Origin: Candidatus Nomurabacteria bacterium GW2011_GWC2_42_20 | GTDB taxonomy: Bacteria; Patescibacteriota; Minisyncoccia; Phycocordibacterales; UBA1550 | NCBI GenBank assembly: GCA_000998425.1 | Contig: LCDG01000006.1 | Coordinates: 1 to 55,376, forward strand | Length of the DNA stretch: 55,376 nt | Reading direction: 5' to 3' | Part shown: one piece after another, positions 9,796 through 25,255 of the stretch | Layout: every line of letters begins with the position of its first letter | How positions within the stretch are numbered: the first letter of the stretch is position 1 | Program-made: the position numbers and the translations under genes | The notes under the pieces: generated by a model | Database searches by the model: none | Told to the model about the DNA's origin: nothing | The model's input: only the letters and a program-made list of their open reading frames with translations

Positions 9796-10140
9796 ATGAC
9801 ATACAAAATCGACGCAAAAGGAAAATCCGTAGGACGTGTTGCCACCGAGGCGGCAAGTGTCCTCATGGGCAAGACTTCGCCAGCATTTCAAAAGCATATC
9901 GCTGCTGACGTTGAGGTTGTAATCGAAAATGCATCAAAGGCAACAATTGCTCCTTCGAAGCTTGGCGAGGTGCACTCAAAGACGTACTCTGGTTACCCAG
10001 GCGGACTTCGCGAGCGTACAATCGGGTATACTATTGAGAAGAAGGGTTATGCTGAAGTTTTTTTACGAGCAATTTCTCGTATGATCCCTCGCAATCGTTT
10101 GCATAAGATCCGTATGAAGAATTTAAAAGTTACAGAATAA
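9796..10140 (+). CDS. rplM: 50S ribosomal protein L13 (compact form)
   Basis: IDAKGKSVGRVAT, LMGK, YSGYPGGL; upstream of rpsI. Confidence 0.95.
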   Translation: MTYKIDAKGKSVGRVATEAASVLMGKTSPAFQKHIAADVEVVIENASKATIAPSKLGEVHSKTYSGYPGGLRERTIGYTIEKKGYAEVFLRAISRMIPRNRLHKIRMKNLKVTE

Positions 10141-10141
10141 T

Positions 10142-10606
10142 ATGACGACCAAAGATACTACAAAAGAAGAAGTAAAAGAGAAGGTTGTAAAGACTACTGC
10201 CGTAAAAAAAGCTGTTGCTCGTTATATTGAGGCAGTTGGTCGTCGCAAGACTTCAACCGCGCGTGTTCGTATTACAGAAGGCTCAAAAGAGTCTGTTATT
10301 GTAAACGACAAGGATGTTTCTACTTATTTTCCAACGCTTGAACTTCAAAAAATCGTTTCAGAGGCGATTGAAAAATCAAAAGTAGCCGGAAAGTTTGCTA
10401 TTACCGTGAAAGTTGTTGGTGGCGGAATTCACTCGCAAGCAGAAGCTCTTCGACATGGACTCTCTCGGGCACTTGTTACCTTTGATGAGGAGACAAGGAA
10501 GCGCTTGAAGAAACTTGGTTTCCTGAAGCGTGATCCACGCATGAAGGAGCGTCGCAAGTTTGGACTCAAAAAAGCACGTAAAGCCCCACAGTGGTCTAAA
10601 CGATAA
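10142..10606 (+). CDS. rpsI: 30S ribosomal protein S9
   Basis: GRRKTSTARV, RDPRMKERRKFGLKKARKAPQWSKR. Confidence 0.98.
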   Translation: MTTKDTTKEEVKEKVVKTTAVKKAVARYIEAVGRRKTSTARVRITEGSKESVIVNDKDVSTYFPTLELQKIVSEAIEKSKVAGKFAITVKVVGGGIHSQAEALRHGLSRALVTFDEETRKRLKKLGFLKRDPRMKERRKFGLKKARKAPQWSKR

Positions 10607-10685
10607 TTATTAAATAAAAACAATGGGGGGCGATTACATAATGTAGTTTCCTCTCTTTTGTTTAATATGGTAGAATCAAATTTCT

Positions 10686-11318
10686 ATGGTAGACAATAAA
10701 CACGATATGAAAAATGATGAAATAGCCGAGGATGCACCTCAGGGGGTGTCACTTGACACAAATGATGATGATATGTATATTGACCCCGTGCAGTTTGAGA
10801 GTGAAGAGGATTTGGAGAATCCTGTGCTTGCAATGAAAAAACTCCGCGAGAAACTCAAGACATGTGAGAAGGAAAAGAAAGAGTATCTCGATGGATGGCA
10901 GAGGATGCGCGCGGACTTTGCAAATATAAAAAGGGATGAGGAGACTCGGCGCGGAGAGATGATAAAATTTGCATCGGAAGGCCTCGTTGAGGATCTTCTT
11001 CCAGTGCTCGATAGTTTCTCAATGGCCTTTGGAAACAAGGAAGCATGGGAAAAGGTAGATGCAAACTGGCGTAAAGGTGTTGAATATATTTACGCTCAAA
11101 TGTACTCTGTTCTTGAGTCGCGAGGGCTCACTGAGGTAGGAAAGGTGGGAGAGCCTGTTGACCCGAGAACCCATGTAGCGGTAGAGGAAGTTTCAGCGAC
11201 ATCAGAAAAGGATTTAAATACAGTTTCAGAAGTAATACAGAAGGGGTATCGCCTGCACAATAAAGTGATTCGCCCCGCAAAAGTGAAATCATTTGGCGGT
11301 ATTGAAAAGCAGAAATAA
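10686..11318 (+). CDS. grpE: Nucleotide exchange factor GrpE
   Basis: RMRADFAN, LLPVLDS, QKGYRLHNKVIRPAKV; upstream of dnaK. Confidence 0.96.
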   Translation: MVDNKHDMKNDEIAEDAPQGVSLDTNDDDMYIDPVQFESEEDLENPVLAMKKLREKLKTCEKEKKEYLDGWQRMRADFANIKRDEETRRGEMIKFASEGLVEDLLPVLDSFSMAFGNKEAWEKVDANWRKGVEYIYAQMYSVLESRGLTEVGKVGEPVDPRTHVAVEEVSATSEKDLNTVSEVIQKGYRLHNKVIRPAKVKSFGGIEKQK

Positions 11319-11433
11319 AGTCGACTAATCGCTAGGTTACGAACTAGTAAGTTCGTGTTTCGGACATAAAAATTACTAAATTCACAGCTTGGACACATTA
11401 ATAGCCTCACTAACATAATCATACTAAACTAAT

Positions 11434-13329
11434 ATGGCAAAAATTTTAGGAATTGACTTGGGTACAACAAACAGCGCGGTTGCTATCATTGAGGGTGGTG
11501 AACCACGTATCGTTGAAAATATCGAAGGAGCACGCACAACACCATCTATCGTGGCAGTTTCAAAAAGTGGTGAACGCTTGGTGGGGCTTCTCGCAAAGCG
11601 CCAGGCTGTTACAAACCCACAGAATACGCTTTTTGGTATCAAACGTATGATTGGGCACACTTATGAAGATGAGGGTGTTCAGCGTGACAAAAAAACAGCT
11701 CCATTCGGAATAGAAAAATCTCCAACAGGTGGTGTTCTTGTGAAAATGGGTGATCGTCAGTATCGACCTGAGGAGATTTCTGCGATGGTACTTCAAAAGC
11801 TCAAGGCTGACGCGGAAGCAAAGCTTGGTGAGAAAATCACAGAAGCCGTTATTACTGTACCTGCGTATTTCAATGATTCACAGCGTCAGGCAACAAAGGA
11901 TGCTGGGCAGATTGCTGGTTTTGATGTTAAACGCATTATAAACGAACCAACGGCAGCAGCTCTTGCGTACGGTTTTAATAAAAAGAAGGATGAAAAAATA
12001 GTGGTCTACGACTTTGGTGGTGGCACCTTTGATGTGTCCGTACTCGAGGTTGGTGGCGATGTTATAGAGGTGAAGTCGACTGACGGTGATGTGCACATGG
12101 GCGGGGAAGACATTGACCAGAAGATTATTAAGCACATTGCGAGCGAGTTTAAGAAGGAGTCTGGTATCGATGTTTCTACAGACGTGATGGCTCTACAGCG
12201 CTTGAAGGAGGCGGCAGAAAAAGCAAAGCACGAGCTTTCTACAACAACAGAGGCCGAAATAAATATTCCTTTCATCACTTCAGGCTCAGACGGTCCAAAG
12301 CATCTCTTGCTCAAACTCTCTCGCGCAACTCTTGACGATCTTGCTCGCGAGTATATCGAAAAATCAATCGAAATCACAAAACGCGCAATCGCCGCATCAC
12401 CTTTCAAAAAAGAAGATATAAACGAAATCATTATGGTTGGTGGACAGACTCGCATGCCAGCTATTGTGAACGCTGTAAAGGAGCTCTTTGGTAAGGAGCC
12501 AAACCGTTCAATCAACCCAGACGAAGTGGTTGCTATTGGAGCTGCGATTCAGGCAGGAATCCTCCAAGGGGATGTAAAGGACGTACTTCTTCTTGATGTT
12601 ATTCCACTTTCTCTTGGAATCGAAACATTCGGTAATGTCGCAACAAAGCTTATTGAAAAGAATACAACAATTCCTGCATCACGTTCTCAGGTTTTCTCTA
12701 CTGCAGCAGACAATCAAACTTCGGTAGAAATTCACGTTGTTCAAGGCGAGCGCCCAATGGCTGCAGACAATAAATCCCTCGGTCGTTTTATCTTGGATGG
12801 TATTCCTCCAGCACACCGCGGTATGCCACAAGTAGAGGTTTCATTTGATGTTGACGCAAACGGAATTCTTCAGGTAAAAGCAAAAGAAAAAACTACCGGG
12901 AAAGAGCAATCAATTCGCATTGAAGCAAGCTCTGGGCTATCAAAAGATGATATTGCGCGTATGCAAAAAGAAGCGGAGATGAACGCGGAAGAAGATGCAA
13001 AGAAGCGCGAAAGTGCAGAGACAAAGAATATGCTTGAGCAGATGATTTACACTGCTGAAAAGGCGCTTCGTGATAATGGCGATAAGGTTCCCGCTGAAAT
13101 GAAGACAGCAGTTGAGAGTAAGATTGCTACTGCAAAAACAGCAAGCGCAGGATCTGATATTGAAGCTATGAAGAAGGCGTCTACAGAGCTTTCAGAAGAA
13201 CTTTCAAAAATTGGAGAGGAAATGATGAAAAGCGCAGAAGGTGCAAAAGCAGAAAGCACACCAGAAAATACGGGTAGTACAGAAGAAAAAGTACACGACG
13301 CAGAGTACAAGGAGGGAGAGGAGAAATAG
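11434..13329 (+). CDS. dnaK: Chaperone DnaK (Hsp70)
   Basis: [25 protein letters not shown]. Confidence 0.99.
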
Positions 13330-18267: not shown

Positions 18268-18434
18268 AACATCTATTTTACCATAGATAAAGAAATGCAA
18301 GTAGTTCGGCTACGCTGGTAGGCCCATGGTATTAATTTGCTAATTCAGCACCGCCAATCTGGCTCGATCCTGCGTACACGCGGTGCAAGCCAAAATAAAA
18401 AACACACCACGATGGTGCACGCCTTTTGTTTTGA

Positions 18435-18449
18435 TGCTCCGCGGGTAGG
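18435..18449. repeat. att core, distal copy (duplicated tRNA-Asn 3' end)
   Basis: tgctccgcgggtagg identical to 25182-25196. Confidence 0.92.
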
Positions 18450-18668
18450 CCCAAGGCATGAACTTGCTAGTTTAGGATCGCCCCTTCGGGTCGACACTAT
18501 CTTAGACTCAAAGAAACAAAAAAGCCCCAACGCATTAGCGTCAGGGACTATTTTGTTTCTGGCTCACTTTAGTCGACGACTTTAGAACTGTTAATTGGTT
18601 GGAAGAGTATCCGTTCCCAGAAACAGATTTAAGGGAATTAAAAGAATTACTAATAGCCTAACGTATTT

Positions 18669-19256
18669 TTATGCTTTTACTCCAGCTCGTGCGGGGAACT
18701 CATATATAAATTTCAAAAGCATTTCTAGGAAGGTCATTATCTCCTCTGCATCTTCTTTTTTCTTAATGACTATTTCATGATTTGCTTCGTTTCCGTGAGA
18801 ACGAATTTTATCAACCCATTCTTTGCTGTTAGGCGGAGCATAGTGGTTGTCTACAAGATAATTAACATACTCAAGGAACGACAACCCTTCCTTTGCGCCC
18901 TGAGCAACACCAATGTGCATCAAAAGTTTTCTTCCGGTTAACACAGCAGAGGAGTATGCTCCATGACTTGTCGATTCTCTAATTTCTGACCAAATAGTCT
19001 CTATTTCAGTTGGCAAGTTTTTCACAACGTTTCCCAATGAGACTCCTGGAACTTGAGTACCAGTTTCGAGATCAAAAAAAGTCGGACGTTTACAAAATGG
19101 GCATATTTGAATAAGGCCATCGATAGCCCCATTGTCATTTCTTTGATGAAACCAGCCTTTTTCCGAACCGATATCTTTCCCGCAAGCCGAATAACCACAT
19201 GTGTAGTTTTTTGCTGTCATTTCTACTACGTTCTGCCAATTTTTTTGTGCCTGCAT
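18669..19256 (-). CDS. DUF4145-domain protein (HEPN-like) with N-terminal zinc ribbon
   Basis: CGYSAC...CPFC; SAVLTGRKLLM...IRSHGNEANH...FLEMLLKFIYEFP. Confidence 0.8.
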   Translation of the reverse strand: MQAQKNWQNVVEMTAKNYTCGYSACGKDIGSEKGWFHQRNDNGAIDGLIQICPFCKRPTFFDLETGTQVPGVSLGNVVKNLPTEIETIWSEIRESTSHGAYSSAVLTGRKLLMHIGVAQGAKEGLSFLEYVNYLVDNHYAPPNSKEWVDKIRSHGNEANHEIVIKKKEDAEEIMTFLEMLLKFIYEFPARAGVKA

Positions 19257-19319
19257 TTCTTACTTATACCACAGAATATAGTGTTTTGGAATTAAGGGGT
19301 TTAGGTGTAGTGTGAAAAT

Positions 19320-19742
19320 ATGGACCCCCAAAATACACGCCCTTGGTATCAAAAGAAGCGATACCTGATCCCGGTTGGAGTAGTTGTCTTGATGACCTTG
19401 TCAGATGGCAGTAATACACCACAGAATCAGCCTACACAAGGGGTAACTCCTGCGACATACCAAACAGAGGTGCATGCGAATACGACCTCGCAAAGTCCAC
19501 AACCGCCTGCTTCTTCCGAAAGTATTACGCAGAAAAGCGTCGTTCCGTCTACGTATACTAGCCCAGGGTTATCAAATGATAATTACTATACAAACAGCGC
19601 GGGGAACGAAGTACATTCTCCCGCTTATTCAAATACAGTTCCAGATGGAGCTTCTGCTCAGTGTCGTGATGGCACGTACAGTTTTAGTCAGTCACGGCGT
19701 GGCACTTGCTCGCATCATGGTGGTGTCTCTGTGTGGTTATAG
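19320..19742 (+). CDS. DUF3761-domain surface protein
   Basis: PWYQKK + hydrophobic anchor, P/T/S-rich linker, ASAQCRDGTYSFSQSRRGTCSHHGGV. Confidence 0.85.
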   Translation: MDPQNTRPWYQKKRYLIPVGVVVLMTLSDGSNTPQNQPTQGVTPATYQTEVHANTTSQSPQPPASSESITQKSVVPSTYTSPGLSNDNYYTNSAGNEVHSPAYSNTVPDGASAQCRDGTYSFSQSRRGTCSHHGGVSVWL

Positions 19743-19747
19743 TTAAA

Positions 19748-20368
19748 CTATTCTTTCTGGTCATCTGGTAATCCTATTCGAGAAAGATAATTTGAAAATC
19801 TTTGAGATAGGCGCTCCCTATATAATTCACGTAAAGACCCAAGATAGGACTTGTGATAGTTCATCACAAGTGCCTCTAGTGGAATGGTATGAAAACGTTT
19901 AAAATCGATGATCATTTCGGGGAAAATTCGAGACGCATCATCTCCAAAGGCACTGAGATAGTGATATCTATGGTATCTTTCATTTAGAATTAGATGTTTA
20001 AGGGCGCTGGCTTGTCCCTTTTTCCCGTCAAAGTCGTTCATTTTTCTTTCCTCAATATGTTGACCCTCTAAAAACTTTTCATGAGGATATGCTGGGCAGA
20101 CAAGAATTGTATCTAATATCTTATCATCACTTTTTTTAGACAGAGCTTCATCTGTCCCTATTGCATCCAGCTGCAAGTTCTTCTTTAGTTGGTTATAGTG
20201 TTGAGAAAGATCACATGCCTGTGTTAAAACAACTGCGTATGGGAATGGGAACTGAATGAGAAGATCGCCATCATCTGAAGGTATCTTATACGAAAAAGAG
20301 AGGTCTCGAAAAATGTCACCTTGGCTAATCTCTGTATTTTTTGACTGAATGTAATGTTGAGATTCCAT
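19748..20368 (-). CDS. Hypothetical protein with MazF/PemK-like motif pattern (candidate toxin)
   Basis: QGDIF...AVVLTQACDL...ILVCP...IIDFKRFHTIP...YLGSL...RLSQRFSNYLSRIGLP; ATG at 20368 (TTG 20395 alternative); fold assignment is inference. Confidence 0.5.
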   Translation of the reverse strand: MESQHYIQSKNTEISQGDIFRDLSFSYKIPSDDGDLLIQFPFPYAVVLTQACDLSQHYNQLKKNLQLDAIGTDEALSKKSDDKILDTILVCPAYPHEKFLEGQHIEERKMNDFDGKKGQASALKHLILNERYHRYHYLSAFGDDASRIFPEMIIDFKRFHTIPLEALVMNYHKSYLGSLRELYRERLSQRFSNYLSRIGLPDDQKE

Positions 20369-20531
20369 TTGTGGATCTAATAACCGTTCTAACAATTTTT
20401 GATGATGGATACTGAATAGAATCTACCACAAATACCTCGTTTTTGGATACAGCTTCCTCTTTATAGGAACCAGTATTGATTATAAAGCTGTCATTTTCGT
20501 AGGATACTGTATTGTTAGTTTTTTTGTTCAT
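20325..20531 (-). CDS. Small 68-aa protein (candidate antitoxin)
   Basis: ATG 1 nt after the upstream stop; 3' end overlaps the start of the next gene. Confidence 0.55.
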   Translation of the reverse strand: MNKKTNNTVSYENDSFIINTGSYKEEAVSKNEVFVVDSIQYPSSKIVRTVIRSTNGISTLHSVKKYRD

Positions 20532-20532
20532 T

Positions 20533-21303
20533 TTATTTTTTCGACATTAGCTTTCTTAGCTCTGGCTTAATACTCATTTCAAATAGGTCCTGAATGAACA
20601 CATTGTAATTTCTCACTGTTTCAGCAATAACGTCTTCAGATGACAATGGGAATCTCGAGAAGCAATCATAGTCGAGAATAAACTCCTTCCTAGTGTTTTC
20701 GTTTGGGTGGTCTTGGTTCCATATACCATATCTGAACCTTAGGTCAGCTTCGTCGTATTTAAGATCAAGTTGAGTCATTGCTCGCGAAATCATCTTCTTA
20801 GTTTTTCCTCCAAATTTTACGGCACCGAGTAGGTTCTCTGCGATATAGTCAGACCAATTAAAGTTAGTCTTTATGAAATTTAAATCAACTCGATTGATGT
20901 AGCGCAAGCCCAATCTGTTGATTGTTGTAATATCAAATGTGCCTACAAAATCACGAATAACAGTATCGCAATCTTTCATCAATTCATTTTTGTCCTTGTA
21001 ACTTCTGTCTCCATACTCGATGATTATGAAATCACCCGAAATTGTCAATTTCTTTTTTCTTGTGGCGCTGAGGAATTCCCACACTTTAACGCTACTTGTA
21101 TCATTTTGAACAGAGTTCTTTTTAAGATCAAATTCCAATTTCCCCTTGATTGCATCTTTTTGTTCTTGAAAAGGGAAATCGCCTTTTATTTTTGTTGAAA
21201 ATGAAGATAAGTTTTTCAGCTCTATTTGCTCAAAGTCGAGCCTCAAAACAACCTTATCAAGAAAATTTTGTTTATAACTTGCCTTGTTTTTCTTCGTGTT
21301 CAT
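20533..21303 (-). CDS. TIGR04255-family protein
   Basis: YKQNFLDKVVLRLDF N-terminus, hallmark INRLGLRYINRV, FILDYDCF, LFEMSI C-terminal helix. Confidence 0.8.
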   Translation of the reverse strand: MNTKKNKASYKQNFLDKVVLRLDFEQIELKNLSSFSTKIKGDFPFQEQKDAIKGKLEFDLKKNSVQNDTSSVKVWEFLSATRKKKLTISGDFIIIEYGDRSYKDKNELMKDCDTVIRDFVGTFDITTINRLGLRYINRVDLNFIKTNFNWSDYIAENLLGAVKFGGKTKKMISRAMTQLDLKYDEADLRFRYGIWNQDHPNENTRKEFILDYDCFSRFPLSSEDVIAETVRNYNVFIQDLFEMSIKPELRKLMSKK

Positions 21304-21464
21304 ATCGTTGTGACCAGTATAACAGATTTATTATATAGTAGGCATCATTCCGTTGCTGTTTGCTTGTTACTATTGCATAAAATGGTGTAAAAATCTAGGT
21401 ATAACAAAAGTTATCCTTCCTACTTACAAGGCCATGTTGCAGCGATGTCTATCGTAGAAAGTTA

Positions 21465-21752
21465 CTATAAGCTGTCGTTTTTTAGTGAATGTTCTTCCTC
21501 AAGGGCTGTGATTGCCAATTTTTGGATTTTATTTTTTTCGTTCGTAATGTGTTTAATGTGTGCCTTTTCCTTAAAATGTTGTACAGCTACAGAAAGAAAG
21601 GATACCCCAAGAATTATACCGGTCAATAAGTAAAGTACATTTTGAACATTCAAAAAAAGATTGCCAGCATAATTCCACAGAAGAAGTGAGCCACCAAAAA
21701 GGATAACTAAAACAAATACACCCTCGAAGTCTTTATTGCTGTTTTTATTCAT
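21465..21752 (-). CDS. Small two-TM membrane protein, 95 aa
   Basis: GVFVLVILFGGSLLLW and VLYLLTGIILGVSFLSVAV, followed by a charged tail; ATG at 21752. Confidence 0.65.
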   Translation of the reverse strand: MNKNSNKDFEGVFVLVILFGGSLLLWNYAGNLFLNVQNVLYLLTGIILGVSFLSVAVQHFKEKAHIKHITNEKNKIQKLAITALEEEHSLKNDSL

Positions 21753-21776
21753 AAGTTTTGCGGGATTATATATTTG

Positions 21777-21900
21777 TGGCAAACAAAAAGCCCACCACAT
21801 GGTCAACGGCCGAAACCGTTCATATCGGTTTCCCGATATGGCCCGCAAAGACAACCCCATATGATGGGTTCTTTATGTCTTTGCGGGACTTCTTTTGCCA
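21777..21900 (-). ncRNA. Putative structured cloverleaf RNA (architecture reminiscent of phage c4/CI RNAs)
   Basis: Closing stem UGGCAAA/UUUGCCA enclosing a 12-bp hairpin, CAUAUCGG-GAAA-CCGAUAUG and AACGGU-UUCG-GCCGUU; tetraloops and G-U pairs indicate the minus strand. Confidence 0.65.
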
Positions 21901-21972
21901 TGCCGCCGATTTCTCGATGGTTTAGGCTACTTCTCTATTCAGTTGTGGTAAAATTGTAGCACAGAGCTGACT

Positions 21973-22722
21973 ATGTTTAAAGGACTTAAAAACGGAAAGA
22001 AGAAGGCATATGAGATTTATGATCGAGCGTGTTGGCGTGAGGGATTCAACGATGACCTCGCTGCTTTTAGGGGGAAATACGAAATTCCGAAACTAGATGA
22101 GGAGAAACAAAATAAAAAGGATATTGAAGATTTGCTTTTGAAGTATTTTGTATCAGCGATGGACAATCTGCACTCAATGCCTGTTGCAGGTGATGCAGAC
22201 AAGGGTCCAGGGCCACAATATCTTAAGGACCGAATCATGTTTCTCAACAAATATGGCTTTCCATCCGTTTCTTTTGGGGATGCAATGGACGCAATTTTAC
22301 TCGAAGAGGTGCCTGCATACCAACCATTCGAAGTGTCTGCTGTTTCGGAAGTTACCTTGTTGGAAAATGCTGGGGCGCAACTTTGTCTACAGGTTGACGC
22401 TCTTGCAAGTAGAGATGAGACTCTCGAATATATAAGAAAAAACTGGGGTGCTATGCAAAAACTTCTTCTCGGGATGGTCCACAAAAGAAAGAGGGTCAAG
22501 ACGAGGGGCAACAGAGATCGAGACAAGCTTATCTATGATTACTATACATACTATAAAAAGCATCCCAAAGAATGGAAAGGTGCACACGCGTACCCTTTGC
22601 AAGCTGTCATTCAAAAACTTCTTGAAGATGGGTACCCTAGATTAAACATAGAAGCAATCAACCAGTCTTATCGAAGGGAAAAGAAACGCAGAGTGAAAGT
22701 CGGGCGTAAACAGACTGGTTAA
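21973..22722 (+). CDS. Hypothetical protein, basic C-terminus, possibly DNA-binding
   Basis: 249-aa ORF preceded by TGgTAAAAT (21946-21954); no family recognised. Confidence 0.6.
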   Translation: MFKGLKNGKKKAYEIYDRACWREGFNDDLAAFRGKYEIPKLDEEKQNKKDIEDLLLKYFVSAMDNLHSMPVAGDADKGPGPQYLKDRIMFLNKYGFPSVSFGDAMDAILLEEVPAYQPFEVSAVSEVTLLENAGAQLCLQVDALASRDETLEYIRKNWGAMQKLLLGMVHKRKRVKTRGNRDRDKLIYDYYTYYKKHPKEWKGAHAYPLQAVIQKLLEDGYPRLNIEAINQSYRREKKRRVKVGRKQTG

Positions 22723-22784
22723 GTGTCTCTAATTTCTCGCTTGTTTTTAAAGATACTGTGATCATACCAATCACGGTATTTTTT

Positions 22785-22958
22785 ATGTCTGAGCTGGTCA
22801 AAACAAACGAAAACATTTTAGATCGAGATATTGTCTCGTTCTTTGATTTGCTTGCTCGTTTTGATTATGAGGACAAACAAAAAGAAGGGTCGTTGTTCAA
22901 TTCTGGCTCCTCAGTCTCAGCTCCTGAGGGGTCGGAATTGGACAAAGATAATAAATAA
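22785..22958 (+). CDS. Small hypothetical protein of the mobile element
   Basis: 57 aa with helix IVSFFDLLARFDYED; stop 4 nt before the rep-like ATG. Confidence 0.5.
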   Translation: MSELVKTNENILDRDIVSFFDLLARFDYEDKQKEGSLFNSGSSVSAPEGSELDKDNK

Positions 22959-22962
22959 AATC

Positions 22963-23469
22963 ATGACAGAGCTGAAAGATGGACACTGGTTCGCAGTTGA
23001 TAATAAATTTATTGATTCTTATGCGTCTCATTTTAGCCCTGCTACAATTGCAGTATATGTTGCTATCTTGAGGTTTAGATTTGGTAGTACAGATAGGGCC
23101 CGCATCTCGCAGGATTCTTTATCTAAAAAACTGGGAATTAGCCGAGAAGCTGTTGGTAGAGTTTTAAAAACTTTAGTTGCTCATTCTCTTTTGCGGGTTG
23201 AGAAAATTAAACGGAATAACGGTACATGGTCTTACAATGAATATCTTGTAATTGATGAGAAGTACTGGCTTCCACCATGTGACCCTATATCACACGGGGT
23301 CGAATTAAGACCATGTGATATTTGTGCAAAAAACCATGAGACCTATCATCACACTAAAAAGACTAAATACAAAAAGACTAATAAATATAGGAATGATTTC
23401 CTTTTGGAAAACAGAAGAGAACTCGCTGCTGGCTTCAAAATGGGCAAAAGGAACACTGGTTATGGATAA
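22963..23469 (+). CDS. Helix-turn-helix replication-initiator-like protein
   Basis: WFAVDN...IAVYVAI...ISQDSLSKKLGISREAVGRVLKTLV...NEY winged-HTH pattern, followed by an iteron-bearing linker. Confidence 0.7.
   Translation: MTELKDGHWFAVDNKFIDSYASHFSPATIAVYVAILRFRFGSTDRARISQDSLSKKLGISREAVGRVLKTLVAHSLLRVEKIKRNNGTWSYNEYLVIDEKYWLPPCDPISHGVELRPCDICAKNHETYHHTKKTKYKKTNKYRNDFLLENRRELAAGFKMGKRNTGYG
23274..23381. repeat. Iteron-like repeats plus A-rich repeats (putative replication origin)
   Basis: accatgtga at 23274 and 23310, accatgaga at 23333; aaaaagactaa at 23356 and 23371. Confidence 0.6.
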
Positions 23470-23644
23470 ACGTAAGTGCTGGCAAAGGTTTGCATTTTGT
23501 AACATACCGTGGCATTTATCGGAGGGATGTTGTGTTAGCAAATGTTAGCTTTTCCTAGGGGGGGGTAGTTTGTTGGCAAAGGTTGACATTTTTAATGAGT
23601 GTACCGTTTTTAGAAAAGGTTATTTTAAGTTAAAATATAAACAT

Positions 23645-25195
23645 ATGAAATCTATAATTTATTGCCGTGTCTCATCTCGAGAGCAAGAAGAAACAGGATA
23701 TTCGTTGGAATCTCAGGAGAAGTTTTTGAAAGAATACGCGGATAAGCAAGCTTTTGCTATAGCAAAAGCTTATAAGGTCACCGAGTCAGCAAGTAAATGG
23801 CAAATTCGCACAACCCTAAAGGAGATGCTTGAATATGCGGAGGAAAACAATATCAATGTTATTCTCGTTGAAAAGATTGACCGCTTAACTCGTAGTCTCA
23901 AGGATGCGGCAATTGTTAATGATTGGGTTCACCAAAGAGGTGAACGAGAGGTTCATTTTACTAAAGAGAATTTTGTTCTAAGTAAAAATACCCGGTCTCA
24001 CGAAAACTTGGTTTGGGATATGAAAGTTGCCATCGCTCGTTTCTATACGAACAATCTCTCAGAAGAAGTAAGGAAGGGCCAGAAGGAAAAAATTGCACAA
24101 GGATGGCTTCCAACAAAGCCTCCACTTGGGTACAAGACGGTTGGAGAAAAAGGTCACAAGATTCATGTTGTTGATGAGGATAAAGCGCCCTTTATTAAAA
24201 AAGCATTTGAACTTTATGCAACCGGCAACTTCTCTCTTTTGTCATTGCGCGAAAAACTTTATACCGATGGCTTGCGCACGCGAGTGGGAGCAAAGCTTTC
24301 AAAGAGTCGCCTTGAGGATATTCTGAGGGACCCATTTTACTGCGGTTCTATGCGATGGAATGATGTCGTGTATCAACACGGAAGACATGAGCCCCTTGTC
24401 TCAAAGGATCTCTTTGAGAAGGTTCAGTATTCTCTAACCCGCAAAAGTGCGCCACACTATCGACGACATCTCTTTCAATTCAGCAAGATGATTAACTGTG
24501 GCGAGTGTAATGGTACCGTGAGCGCGGAAATGCAAAAAGGTTATGTGTACTATTCGTGCAAGCATGCCCGAGGATGCAATCAAAAAGGGATGACACGAGA
24601 AGAGAAAATCGAGAATGCCATTATCGGGGTATTCAAGATTTTTGAGAGCATGACGGAGGAAGAGGCTCAGGAAATTTACCGTAGAATTAGAGAGGACCAC
24701 AAAGCAGAGGCTGACTACAAGGAAAGCGCCATTAAGACCCTTAACGACCGTTACAGCTCACTACAGAGGCGTTTAGATATACTTTACGATGATCGTTTGG
24801 CAGAGAAAATAAGCCAGGAGCGCTGGCAAGGTAAACAGGATGAGATGGTACGTGAACAAACCGAGATACAGGCTCAAATCGCTAAAATTAAGCGCGAGGA
24901 GACGAAGTATTTTGAAGTGTATATAAACATTCTTGACCTAGCGCGTCGTGCTCGAGAAATTTATGAAAAGCGAACACCGGAAGAGAAACGACTTTTAATT
25001 TCGCATCTTTTTTCGAACCTCGTCTTAAAAGACAAAGAAGCTAGTTATTTATTGAAGAAACCAGTCGAGCTGTTCGCAAAAAGAGTCCAAGAGAAGATTG
25101 ACTCTCAAAAGAAGTTCGAACTCGAGAAAAGCGTTGGTAATAAAAGAAAAAACAGGGCTTTTGACCCTGCTTCTTCACCTTTGCTCCGCGGGTAG
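23645..25195 (+). CDS. Large serine recombinase (resolvase + recombinase + zinc ribbon + coiled coil)
   Basis: YCRVSSREQ catalytic Ser, EKIDRLTR, PPLGY, CGECNG...YYSC; ATG at 23645; stop codon lies in the att core. Confidence 0.95.
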   Translation: MKSIIYCRVSSREQEETGYSLESQEKFLKEYADKQAFAIAKAYKVTESASKWQIRTTLKEMLEYAEENNINVILVEKIDRLTRSLKDAAIVNDWVHQRGEREVHFTKENFVLSKNTRSHENLVWDMKVAIARFYTNNLSEEVRKGQKEKIAQGWLPTKPPLGYKTVGEKGHKIHVVDEDKAPFIKKAFELYATGNFSLLSLREKLYTDGLRTRVGAKLSKSRLEDILRDPFYCGSMRWNDVVYQHGRHEPLVSKDLFEKVQYSLTRKSAPHYRRHLFQFSKMINCGECNGTVSAEMQKGYVYYSCKHARGCNQKGMTREEKIENAIIGVFKIFESMTEEEAQEIYRRIREDHKAEADYKESAIKTLNDRYSSLQRRLDILYDDRLAEKISQERWQGKQDEMVREQTEIQAQIAKIKREETKYFEVYINILDLARRAREIYEKRTPEEKRLLISHLFSNLVLKDKEASYLLKKPVELFAKRVQEKIDSQKKFELEKSVGNKRKNRAFDPASSPLLRG

Positions 25196-25255
25196 GGATC
25201 GAACCTACGACCAAGCGATTAACAGTCGCTTGCTCTACCACTGAGCTACCGCGGA
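25184..25255 (-). tRNA. tRNA-Asn (GTT), CCA not encoded
   Basis: TCCGCGGTAGCTCAGTGGTAGAGCAAGCGACTGTTAATCGCTTGGTCGTAGGTTCGATCCCTACCCGCGGAG folds as a cloverleaf. Confidence 0.97.

Follow-up and report, generated by a model that had tools for sequence, protein, structure and literature searches.

In this paper we look at a structured RNA and at the small gene that follows it in the genome of Candidatus Nomurabacteria bacterium GW2011_GWC2_42_20 (assembly GCA_000998425.1), a bacterium of the candidate phyla radiation (CPR). The stretch of DNA that was analyzed, called here the window, is 55,376 nucleotides (nt) long and corresponds to positions 1 to 55,376 of contig LCDG01000006.1. On its minus strand lies a copy of the LOOT RNA (Rfam RF03000), followed by the start of a gene for a protein of 95 amino acids (aa), and one arm of the RNA is repeated immediately before the start codon of this gene. 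Read along the minus strand, the region consists of the following features.

21953..21981, minus strand: promoter-like site (TTTAAA, a 17-nt spacer and a TG-extended TACAAT) from a consensus scan, with a putative promoter function.
21936..21946, minus strand: conserved 5' motif ACAACTGAATA, seen by eye and uncounted, the probable 5' end of the RNA, outside the Rfam model.
21805..21928, minus strand: LOOT RNA, full Rfam model (cmscan).
21897..21927, minus strand: P1, with an outer stem of 3 bp, an internal loop (CUAAAC / CAU) and an inner hairpin (minimum free energy, MFE, fold and Rfam alignment).
21876..21887, minus strand: 5' arm of P2, CCCGCAAAGACA, which together with the U at 21888 contains the first 9-mer (sequence).
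21856..21875, minus strand: apex of P2, a local 5-bp hairpin or the 5' strand of a long-range helix, H (duplex energy and sub-alignment A2, see below).
21842..21853, minus strand: 3' arm of P2, UGUCUUUGCGGG, with two possible partners (duplex energies and constrained fold).
21821..21840, minus strand: P3, an 8-bp hairpin with a GAAA loop (cmscan, MFE fold and A2).
21805..21820, minus strand: P4, a 6-bp hairpin with a UUCG loop (cmscan, MFE fold and A2).
21783..21803, minus strand: 3' tail with a GC-rich core and a U-run, the 3' strand of helix H, outside the Rfam model (complementarity).
21775..21784, minus strand: anti-tail, a possible local hairpin with the tail core, which includes the 3' arm of a closing stem proposed earlier (MFE fold).
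21757..21765, minus strand: copy of the P2 5' arm, UCCCGCAAA, 4 nt before the start codon (sequence).
21465..21752, minus strand: first cargo gene, 95 aa, with two hydrophobic segments and no known family (open reading frame, ORF, and library scans).

The RNA is a member of the known LOOT family and not a new RNA. When the whole window was scanned against Rfam, LOOT was the sole match apart from tRNAs; it scored 83.5 bits over the full model (positions 1-121 of 121; gathering score 46.4, E = 2.5e-14), and the genome-wide search gave the same match. All the consensus helices are present in the window copy (outer and inner P1, outer and inner P2, P3 with its GAAA loop, and P4), with non-standard pairs flagged by the cmscan alignment at four inner P2 pairs and four P1 pairs, and the MFE fold has the same four domains as the Rfam consensus. 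With the full model and all its helices, the window copy cannot be separated from the family. The region 21740-21960 on the minus strand folds at -70.1 kcal/mol against -49.5 +/- 4.2 kcal/mol for shuffled sequences (z = -4.9), and none of 200 shuffles folded as well.

A preliminary description of this DNA, made from the sequence alone, had placed a cloverleaf RNA with a built-in switch at 21752..21900. Its three hairpins are found exactly as described, namely a 12-bp stem (21887-21876 with 21853-21842), a GAAA-capped stem (21840-21821) and a UUCG-capped stem (21820-21805). The interval does contain these hairpins but cuts the RNA short, as P1 (21927-21897) is missed. The cloverleaf also required a closing stem, UGGCAAA/UUUGCCA (21900-21894 with 21783-21777), which is possible in the window (-9.0 kcal/mol) but is not a conserved feature. 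In relatives this stem is at the level of chance (own-locus median -4.2 against -4.0 kcal/mol for other loci; -8 kcal/mol or lower in 3 of 64 loci, against 4.9% of the controls), and in the window its 5' arm clashes with P1 by using three bases of the conserved 3' strand of that helix. Because the closing pairing is at chance in the 64 relatives, a cloverleaf is ruled out.

A resemblance to P1 c4/icd and P4 CI/kil had also been proposed. For the C4 family of antisense RNAs (Rfam RF01695), a permissive Rfam scan of 21400-22100 gave no match at E values up to 10, and the extra matches were at chance level. No known riboswitch family was matched in the window or in 21400-22100; alternative pairings resembling those of an expression platform are present, and LOOT is not known to have a ligand or an aptamer. 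The conserved RNA unit runs from about 21946 to 21783 on the minus strand. In four DNA metagenome runs many other LOOT copies match the core at about 21784-21946 and diverge outside it, with an upper edge near 21927-21947, and the contigs of these runs held no usable variants at the arm copy. The DNA runs that contain 21460-21990 come from groundwater, soil and wastewater metagenomes.

LOOT has been described from uncultivated, metagenome-derived bacteria, an occurrence that the window copy fits. The motif stems from the survey of Weinberg et al. (2017; PMC5737381), whose main text is silent on the RNA and has the word 'LOOT' solely among the references, as the name of an author, and since that survey the family has stood in Rfam without an assigned function. 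A full-text literature search found the RNA named only in the 2017 survey, in the Rfam 14 paper, where it appears in a figure legend (PMC7779021), and in a structure-prediction paper together with its preprint, where the entry for LOOT gives approximately 43 base pairs, six helices and 28 cross-covariations (PMC7657543). Beyond the Rfam model and its 'sRNA' (small RNA) label, the present analysis adds the 5' motif with its promoter-like site, a 3' tail that pairs with the apex of P2, a frequent anti-tail, and the copy of the arm at the gene start.

LOOT was found in 20 of 60 relatives. With 151 genomes searched at each level, it was present in 41 of those from the order and in 30 of those from the phylum, whereas 14 control genomes had none. 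The 68 loci of the discovery set were collected in 46 genomes belonging to the same genus and order, and 64 of these loci fold into the expected four domains and were parsed by machine; the other four (L021, L040, L044 and L068) were checked by hand. The replication set was taken from other classes of the phylum and holds 41 loci, of which 39 were parsed (L094 and L113, which are not four-domain, were dropped). Two further matches were not used, one of 32.4 bits at the end of a contig (G069:C53:17-126) and one of 29.8 bits (G251:C2:45747-45825). In a MAFFT alignment of 66 sequences the variable arms were too loosely aligned for pair counts, and each locus was therefore parsed separately and a sub-alignment of 13 sequences (A2) was used for the pairs.

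The first feature that these loci have in common lies in front of the RNA. In the 68 upstream stretches, judged by eye and uncounted, an extended -10 element (TGnTAnAAT-like) stands at the same position before most LOOT loci, and in most of them the ACAACTGAATA motif precedes the Rfam start by a few nucleotides (21936-21958 in the window for the two together). In the 75 nt upstream of L001-L068 the -10 is often the right half of a short palindrome whose halves change together (TAGCA...TGCTA, TACCA...TGGTA), and a CAGCGATA-like word recurs by eye farther upstream of LOOT copies. From their sequence, the palindrome and this word could be an operator or an upstream hairpin.

The second common feature is helix H, in which the apex of P2 pairs with the 3' tail over ~20 bp. 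It is found in all 103 parsed loci (64 and 39), the tail being outside the Rfam model. Its median energy is -25.85 kcal/mol in the 64 loci and -24.5 in the 39 loci, and non-self pairs reach a median of -13.0; the 5' portion of the apex, which is A-rich, lies opposite the U-run of the tail. In A2 the helix has 18 pairs, 99.1% paired, seven of which changed on both sides; the pairs of P1 covary in the same sub-alignment. An anti-tail is also frequent: measured against the 5% level of non-self pairs, a comparable element is stronger in 24 of the 64 loci and in 10 of the 39, and by this measure that of the window is weak (-9.1 kcal/mol).

The third feature is the copy of the arm. In the window the 9-mer UCCCGCAAA occurs on the minus strand at 21888-21880 and again at 21765-21757, where it ends 4 nt before the ATG (21752-21750) of the 95-codon ORF, whose product has two hydrophobic segments in a Kyte-Doolittle window; for this repeat the preliminary coordinates were exact. 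The 9-mer alone is not rare, with three occurrences in the genome where ~5 are expected by chance, so that the significance of the repeat comes from the relatives and not from its rarity. For each locus we took the longest exact match between the P2 5' arm (+2 nt) and positions +21 to +120 past the Rfam end, with a match of 9 nt or more counted as positive, and as a control each arm was compared with the downstream region of loci with an unrelated arm. A copy of the locus's own arm of at least 9 nt was found in 32 of the 64 parsed loci, against 6 of 3774 control pairs (0.16%). Among the hand-checked loci, L040 has a 15-nt copy, L044 a 10-nt copy, and L021 and L068 none, which brings the total to 34 of 68. 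The replication set gave a copy in 8 of 39 loci (control 2 of 1398) and one more 8-mer 2 nt before an ATG; overall, the copy is present in 42 of 107 loci. Its length is bimodal, with 9-13 nt in 32 parsed loci and 7 nt or fewer in the other 32, and among the 32 positive loci, which were found in 28 of the 46 genomes, there are 19 different arms.

The position of the copy is also constant. In 30 of the 32 positive loci the distance between its end and the start codon is -1 to +7 nt; in the two outliers, the copy of L032 overlaps an in-frame ATG and L042 is without a convincing ORF. In L093 too the copy overlaps an in-frame ATG. These observations bear on another explanation, that the window holds a chance repeat of its own. 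The number of 9-mers expected in the genome and the window's type of LOOT, which rarely carries a copy, would both fit such a repeat, but only the 0.16% of unrelated arm/downstream pairs given above share 9 nt within the 100-nt zone, the window copy stands 4 nt before an ATG as copies do in other positive loci, and the other LOOT of this genome likewise has a 9-mer copy, of another sequence, 2 nt in front of its own ATG. Judged from these sequences, a chance repeat would be unlikely, and we give it hardly any credence.

If the copy is not accidental, the match might still belong to the DNA and not to the RNA, the direct repeats of 9-15 bp being the scar or the substrate of an insertion, a cassette exchange or a deletion. 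The match is indeed the identity of two stretches of DNA, the wobble test was uninformative (see below), and the locus is part of a mobile island that encodes a serine recombinase and whose cargo is swapped. However, one of the repeats lies within a strand of a conserved RNA helix and is complementary to the opposite strand, and the sequence of the repeat varies by locus, unlike a recombinase site. The distance from the copy to the start codon is fixed and that from the copy to the RNA varies (+32 to +62). In four runs no contig joins across both repeats, a weak point since contigs hide rare variants. We regard a repeat at the level of DNA as very improbable.

By its sequence, the 3' arm has two possible partners. 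In 13 sequences its pairing with the copy is formed in 95.3% of the cells, and shifting the partner by 1-3 columns lowers this to 37-56%, with 5 of 10 pairs changed on both sides and a covariation score of 0.283 against 0.106 for shuffled sequences, none of 500 shuffles reaching as high. The copy consists of an A-rich lead followed by the proximal 9-13 nt of the arm, and the distal end is divergent. The earlier proposal that the 3' arm has alternative partners, the second of them on the translation start, has held up in the relatives, where the three-part match changes together across the 19 arm classes of the 32 loci. At the level of sequence, this comparison demonstrates both the complementarities and their co-variation.

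A mechanism that would fit these complementarities is that LOOT is the promoter-proximal 5' leader of the cargo operon of the island and acts as a conformational switch on the translation of the first cargo gene; to us this has a little better than an even chance of being correct. In the first fold, which is the Rfam fold P1-P4, the 12-bp P2 would hold the 3' arm and the start of the 95-aa gene would be free. In the second fold the tail would capture the P2 apex in a helix of ~20 bp that ends in the U-run, and P2 would open, because a loop of ~24 nt presumably cannot form a 20-bp helix as long as its 12-bp closing stem is intact. The released 3' arm could then pair with the copy 4 nt before the AUG and close the landing site of the ribosome, and the GC core helix with its U-run may also stop transcription. 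We infer that the two folds exclude each other, and the same standing applies to the choice of the fold that is 'on', to the effect on ribosomes and to the trigger and direction of the switch. The duplexes of the window have energies of -23.7 (apex/tail), -21.0 (P2 arms), -13.2 (3' arm/copy) and -12.8 kcal/mol (tail/anti-tail). When the 5' arm is blocked, the MFE fold pairs the 3' arm with the copy at -60.4 kcal/mol, and with apex and tail forced together the energy is -58.0 kcal/mol, a value to which the crossing pairing of the 3' arm with the copy is not yet added.

Several observations weigh against such a leader switch. The unconstrained MFE fold of the window leader (-69.2 kcal/mol) has P2 closed and the start open. 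The copy is absent in half of the close relatives and in about four fifths of the distant ones. In the 32 copy-less loci the pairing of the 3' arm with the start region is at chance (median -5.65 against -4.6), as is that of the whole RNA with the start region (-12.6 against -12.5), with exceptions only where the start abuts the tail; since these loci have no substitute pairing, the gate is not the core function of LOOT. The window LOOT itself belongs by eye to the apex type CCCAUCAU, in which the copy is rare, and with 9 nt its copy is among the shortest. Of the 40 positions that differ between copy and arm, mostly at the distal end, 34 fail to pair and 6 pair, and because the copy is identical to the 5' arm the wobble test is uninformative, RNA pairing and DNA identity being inseparable. 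The 13-sequence sub-alignment represents one LOOT type with structures taken from one of its own rows, and the counts in relatives come from related genomes, which are not independent. Among the sequencing runs listed as containing 21460-21990, none is an RNA run.

The genes behind LOOT are also of interest for its function. The 95-aa protein has no match in Pfam, NCBIfam, PADLOC or PHROGs, and in an atlas search its matches reached at most 0.84, which is the level of chance. Library scans cover the window's own genes, and the genes of the relatives were typed by eye. A co-oriented ORF of at least 60 aa begins within 130 nt of LOOT in 65 of 68 loci, and in the relatives these first genes are highly diverse, and the largest code for 380 aa or more; their products, as typed by eye, include small two-segment membrane, superinfection-immunity-like, HNH-like, methylase-like, GIY-YIG-like and secreted or anchored proteins. 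This diversity does not support the suggested tie to a toxic small membrane protein, and a type I toxin-antitoxin system with a small hydrophobic toxin as its constant target was rejected for the same reason. One arm class of eight loci precedes several different first genes, which argues that the copy moves with the RNA module and not with the gene. On the upstream side there is no constant protein partner, the largest family being found at 14 of 109 loci.

One can also take LOOT as it is typed in Rfam ('Gene; sRNA'), as a free-standing small RNA with a function unrelated to the next gene and with the copy as a tolerated by-product. Besides the Rfam type and the lack of a conserved upstream neighbour, such an RNA would explain why 34 of 68 and 31 of 39 loci are copy-less and keep all the other features. 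It would not account for the co-oriented ORF that follows so closely in nearly every locus, for the bimodal length of the copy and its fixed position at the start codon, or for a copy that is kept before different cargo genes. We consider a free-standing small RNA quite unlikely.

Some of the copy-less loci have arrangements of their own at the next gene. In L022 and L054, and also in L006, L033, L013, L031 and L050, the next gene starts only 23-39 nt past the Rfam end; the start region is in or just after the tail, and the apex-tail helix itself would cover it, with -26 to -32 kcal/mol in L022 and L054. In L009 (G036:C20) the start region, about 30-50 nt past the end of LOOT, carries a copy of the P2 apex core and not of the 5' arm. 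By its sequence, the tail could pair there with the start region, as a second way of linking the switch to a start codon. In L007, L025 and L026 an ordinary hairpin with a U-run is found between the tail and the next ATG, which points to an additional terminator behind LOOT in part of the copy-less loci.

The wider setting of the window LOOT is a mobile island in a genome of 0.68 Mb (678,769 bases in 17 contigs, 92.6% complete). The features of the island outside the LOOT region are as follows.

18435..25196: integrated island of 6.8 kb between perfect 15-bp direct repeats at 18435-18449 and 25182-25196 (repeat finding).
23570..25195, divergent from LOOT: large serine recombinase (Resolvase, Recombinase and Zn_ribbon_recom domains).
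22831..23469, divergent from LOOT: winged-helix protein with a weak likeness to phage replication initiators (library scans).
21973..22722, divergent from LOOT: orphan gene of 249 aa.
20533..21303, LOOT strand, after the 95-aa gene: TIGR04255-family gene.

The cargo genes share the strand of LOOT; after the TIGR04255-family gene they continue with an orphan gene of 215 aa and, past a DUF3761 gene on the opposite strand, with a DUF4145 gene. The right 15-bp repeat overlaps the 3' end of a tRNA-Asn gene (25184-25255, minus strand). A third copy of the repeat, 80% identical, lies at 18308-18322, 127 bp outside the left repeat, and may on this likeness be the remnant of an older insertion. Three 22-nt direct repeats (73-100% alike) at 23477-23592 occupy the 100 nt ahead of the serine recombinase gene and extend over its start; they may be binding sites.

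The same genome has a second LOOT, on contig C7 at 11299-11417 (62.3 bits), which lies ~1.8 kb from a divergent gene for a recombinase-like protein of 541 aa, 24.5% identical to the recombinase of the window (E = 8e-25). The layout is the same as in the window (C7 7858-11880; the locus, L002, covers 9799-12917). This LOOT has a different P2 stem, and its own 9-mer copy of the 5' arm lies 2 nt before the ATG of a membrane-type ORF of 69 aa. One genome, G192, is the only one in which two LOOT copies share an arm (L073 and L102). Both have the arm copy 3-4 nt before an ATG, the first codons that follow are the same, and judged by this likeness the pair looks like a duplicated element.

A further possibility is that the RNA acts in trans, as an immunity or incompatibility RNA: most transcripts would terminate at the U-run, yielding a stable LOOT RNA of ~165 nt, whose exposed 3' arm would pair with the start region of any transcript, read-through or incoming, that has the same 'address', as in P4 CI, P1 c4 or IsrK, the short form of the last acting on its long form. 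The tail helix and the U-run are terminator-like, the divergent control region in which LOOT is found belongs to a mobile island and has replication and recombinase genes next to it, and systems of this kind have been described for P4 CI and IsrK in the parts of PMC4825925 devoted to them, and for P1 c4 in the corresponding part of PMC8198154. The arms are diverse (the 19 classes in 32 loci), and between copies within a genome they differ in 33 of 34 pairs, as orthogonal addresses would predict. Yet arms are shared in 1 of 34 pairs within genomes, which is not below the 58 of 5219 pairs (1.1%) between genomes, so that there is no positive sign of selection for orthogonality. We tested three genomes whose LOOT is copy-less, and in all three a search with 11 nt of the arm returned only the arm itself; in the window genome the extra matches to the 9-mer are at chance level, and the sole start-proximal one is inside an ABC-ATPase gene. 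The intramolecular 5' arm would, moreover, compete with a target in trans. We find a trans-acting RNA unlikely; such a mode would be compatible both with the cis model and with the data.

Returning to the leader switch in cis, a wider reading can be drawn from it, which we put forward tentatively, as possible but on the whole doubtful. LOOT would be a portable, address-coded switch of CPR mobile islands, in which a conserved sensor fold is connected to any cargo gene through an 'address' of 9-15 nt that occurs on both arms of P2 and a third time in the start region of the gene. Strand exchange between apex and tail would decide on read-through and on ribosome access, and island-specific addresses would avoid cross-talk. 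If this is true, an orphan family would gain a function and the first riboregulator class would be described for CPR mobile elements. The comparative data already take LOOT from an orphan 'sRNA' to a testable leader model, with two long helices that would be exclusive and, in a large share of the loci, a triple match of variable sequence whose end is on the start codon of the next gene; these cargo genes are swappable, and some are of defence or membrane type. If the leader model is right, it would show how genes are controlled on the mobile islands of tiny host-dependent bacteria and would offer a translational gate that is naturally modular. If it is wrong, the window holds one further copy of a known RNA family.

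In known systems, translational riboswitch platforms and the fold-back of hok-type toxin mRNAs combine an anti-sequestor, a sequestor and a ribosome-binding region, and LOOT would share this three-part logic. Riboswitches sequester a constant Shine-Dalgarno sequence, whereas the site sequestered by LOOT would be an arbitrary, locus-specific 'address' of 9-15 nt, and in contrast to hok-type toxins the genes that it would gate are not of one toxin family.

There is also a likeness to antisense RNAs of mobile elements. RNase P cuts the P4 CI RNA out of its precursor. The analogy with P4 CI drawn in the preliminary description fits in its layout: as far as the account in PMC4825925 goes, P4 CI, like LOOT, is an antisense segment in the operon leader of a mobile element, with complementary sites on both sides in the same transcript. 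The part of PMC4825925 that treats P4 CI names its partners as seqA on the upstream side and seqC on the downstream side, and describes an RNA that is excised from a precursor and ends transcription prematurely; c4 RNA is presented in the relevant part of PMC8198154 as an antisense repressor that is needed for the full repression of icd and ant. With its 5' arm, 3' arm and copy LOOT has an arrangement of this kind, as a likeness of layout only; P4 CI and c4 have no sequence or structure match to LOOT (no C4 match at E values up to 10), and the downstream site of LOOT is on the start codon region. The IsrK RNA of the Salmonella prophage Gifsy-1 is, in the section of PMC4825925 that deals with it, made as a short terminated RNA and as a long read-through mRNA, with the ribosome-binding site of the long form under the control of an alternative pairing in the leader. 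On this account it resembles the model proposed for LOOT in that alternative pairing in a leader controls a ribosome-binding site, and it differs in that its short form activates translation in trans and that the two have no sequence relation. By this analogy, LOOT would work like the group of P4 CI, P1 c4 and IsrK without being a member of it.

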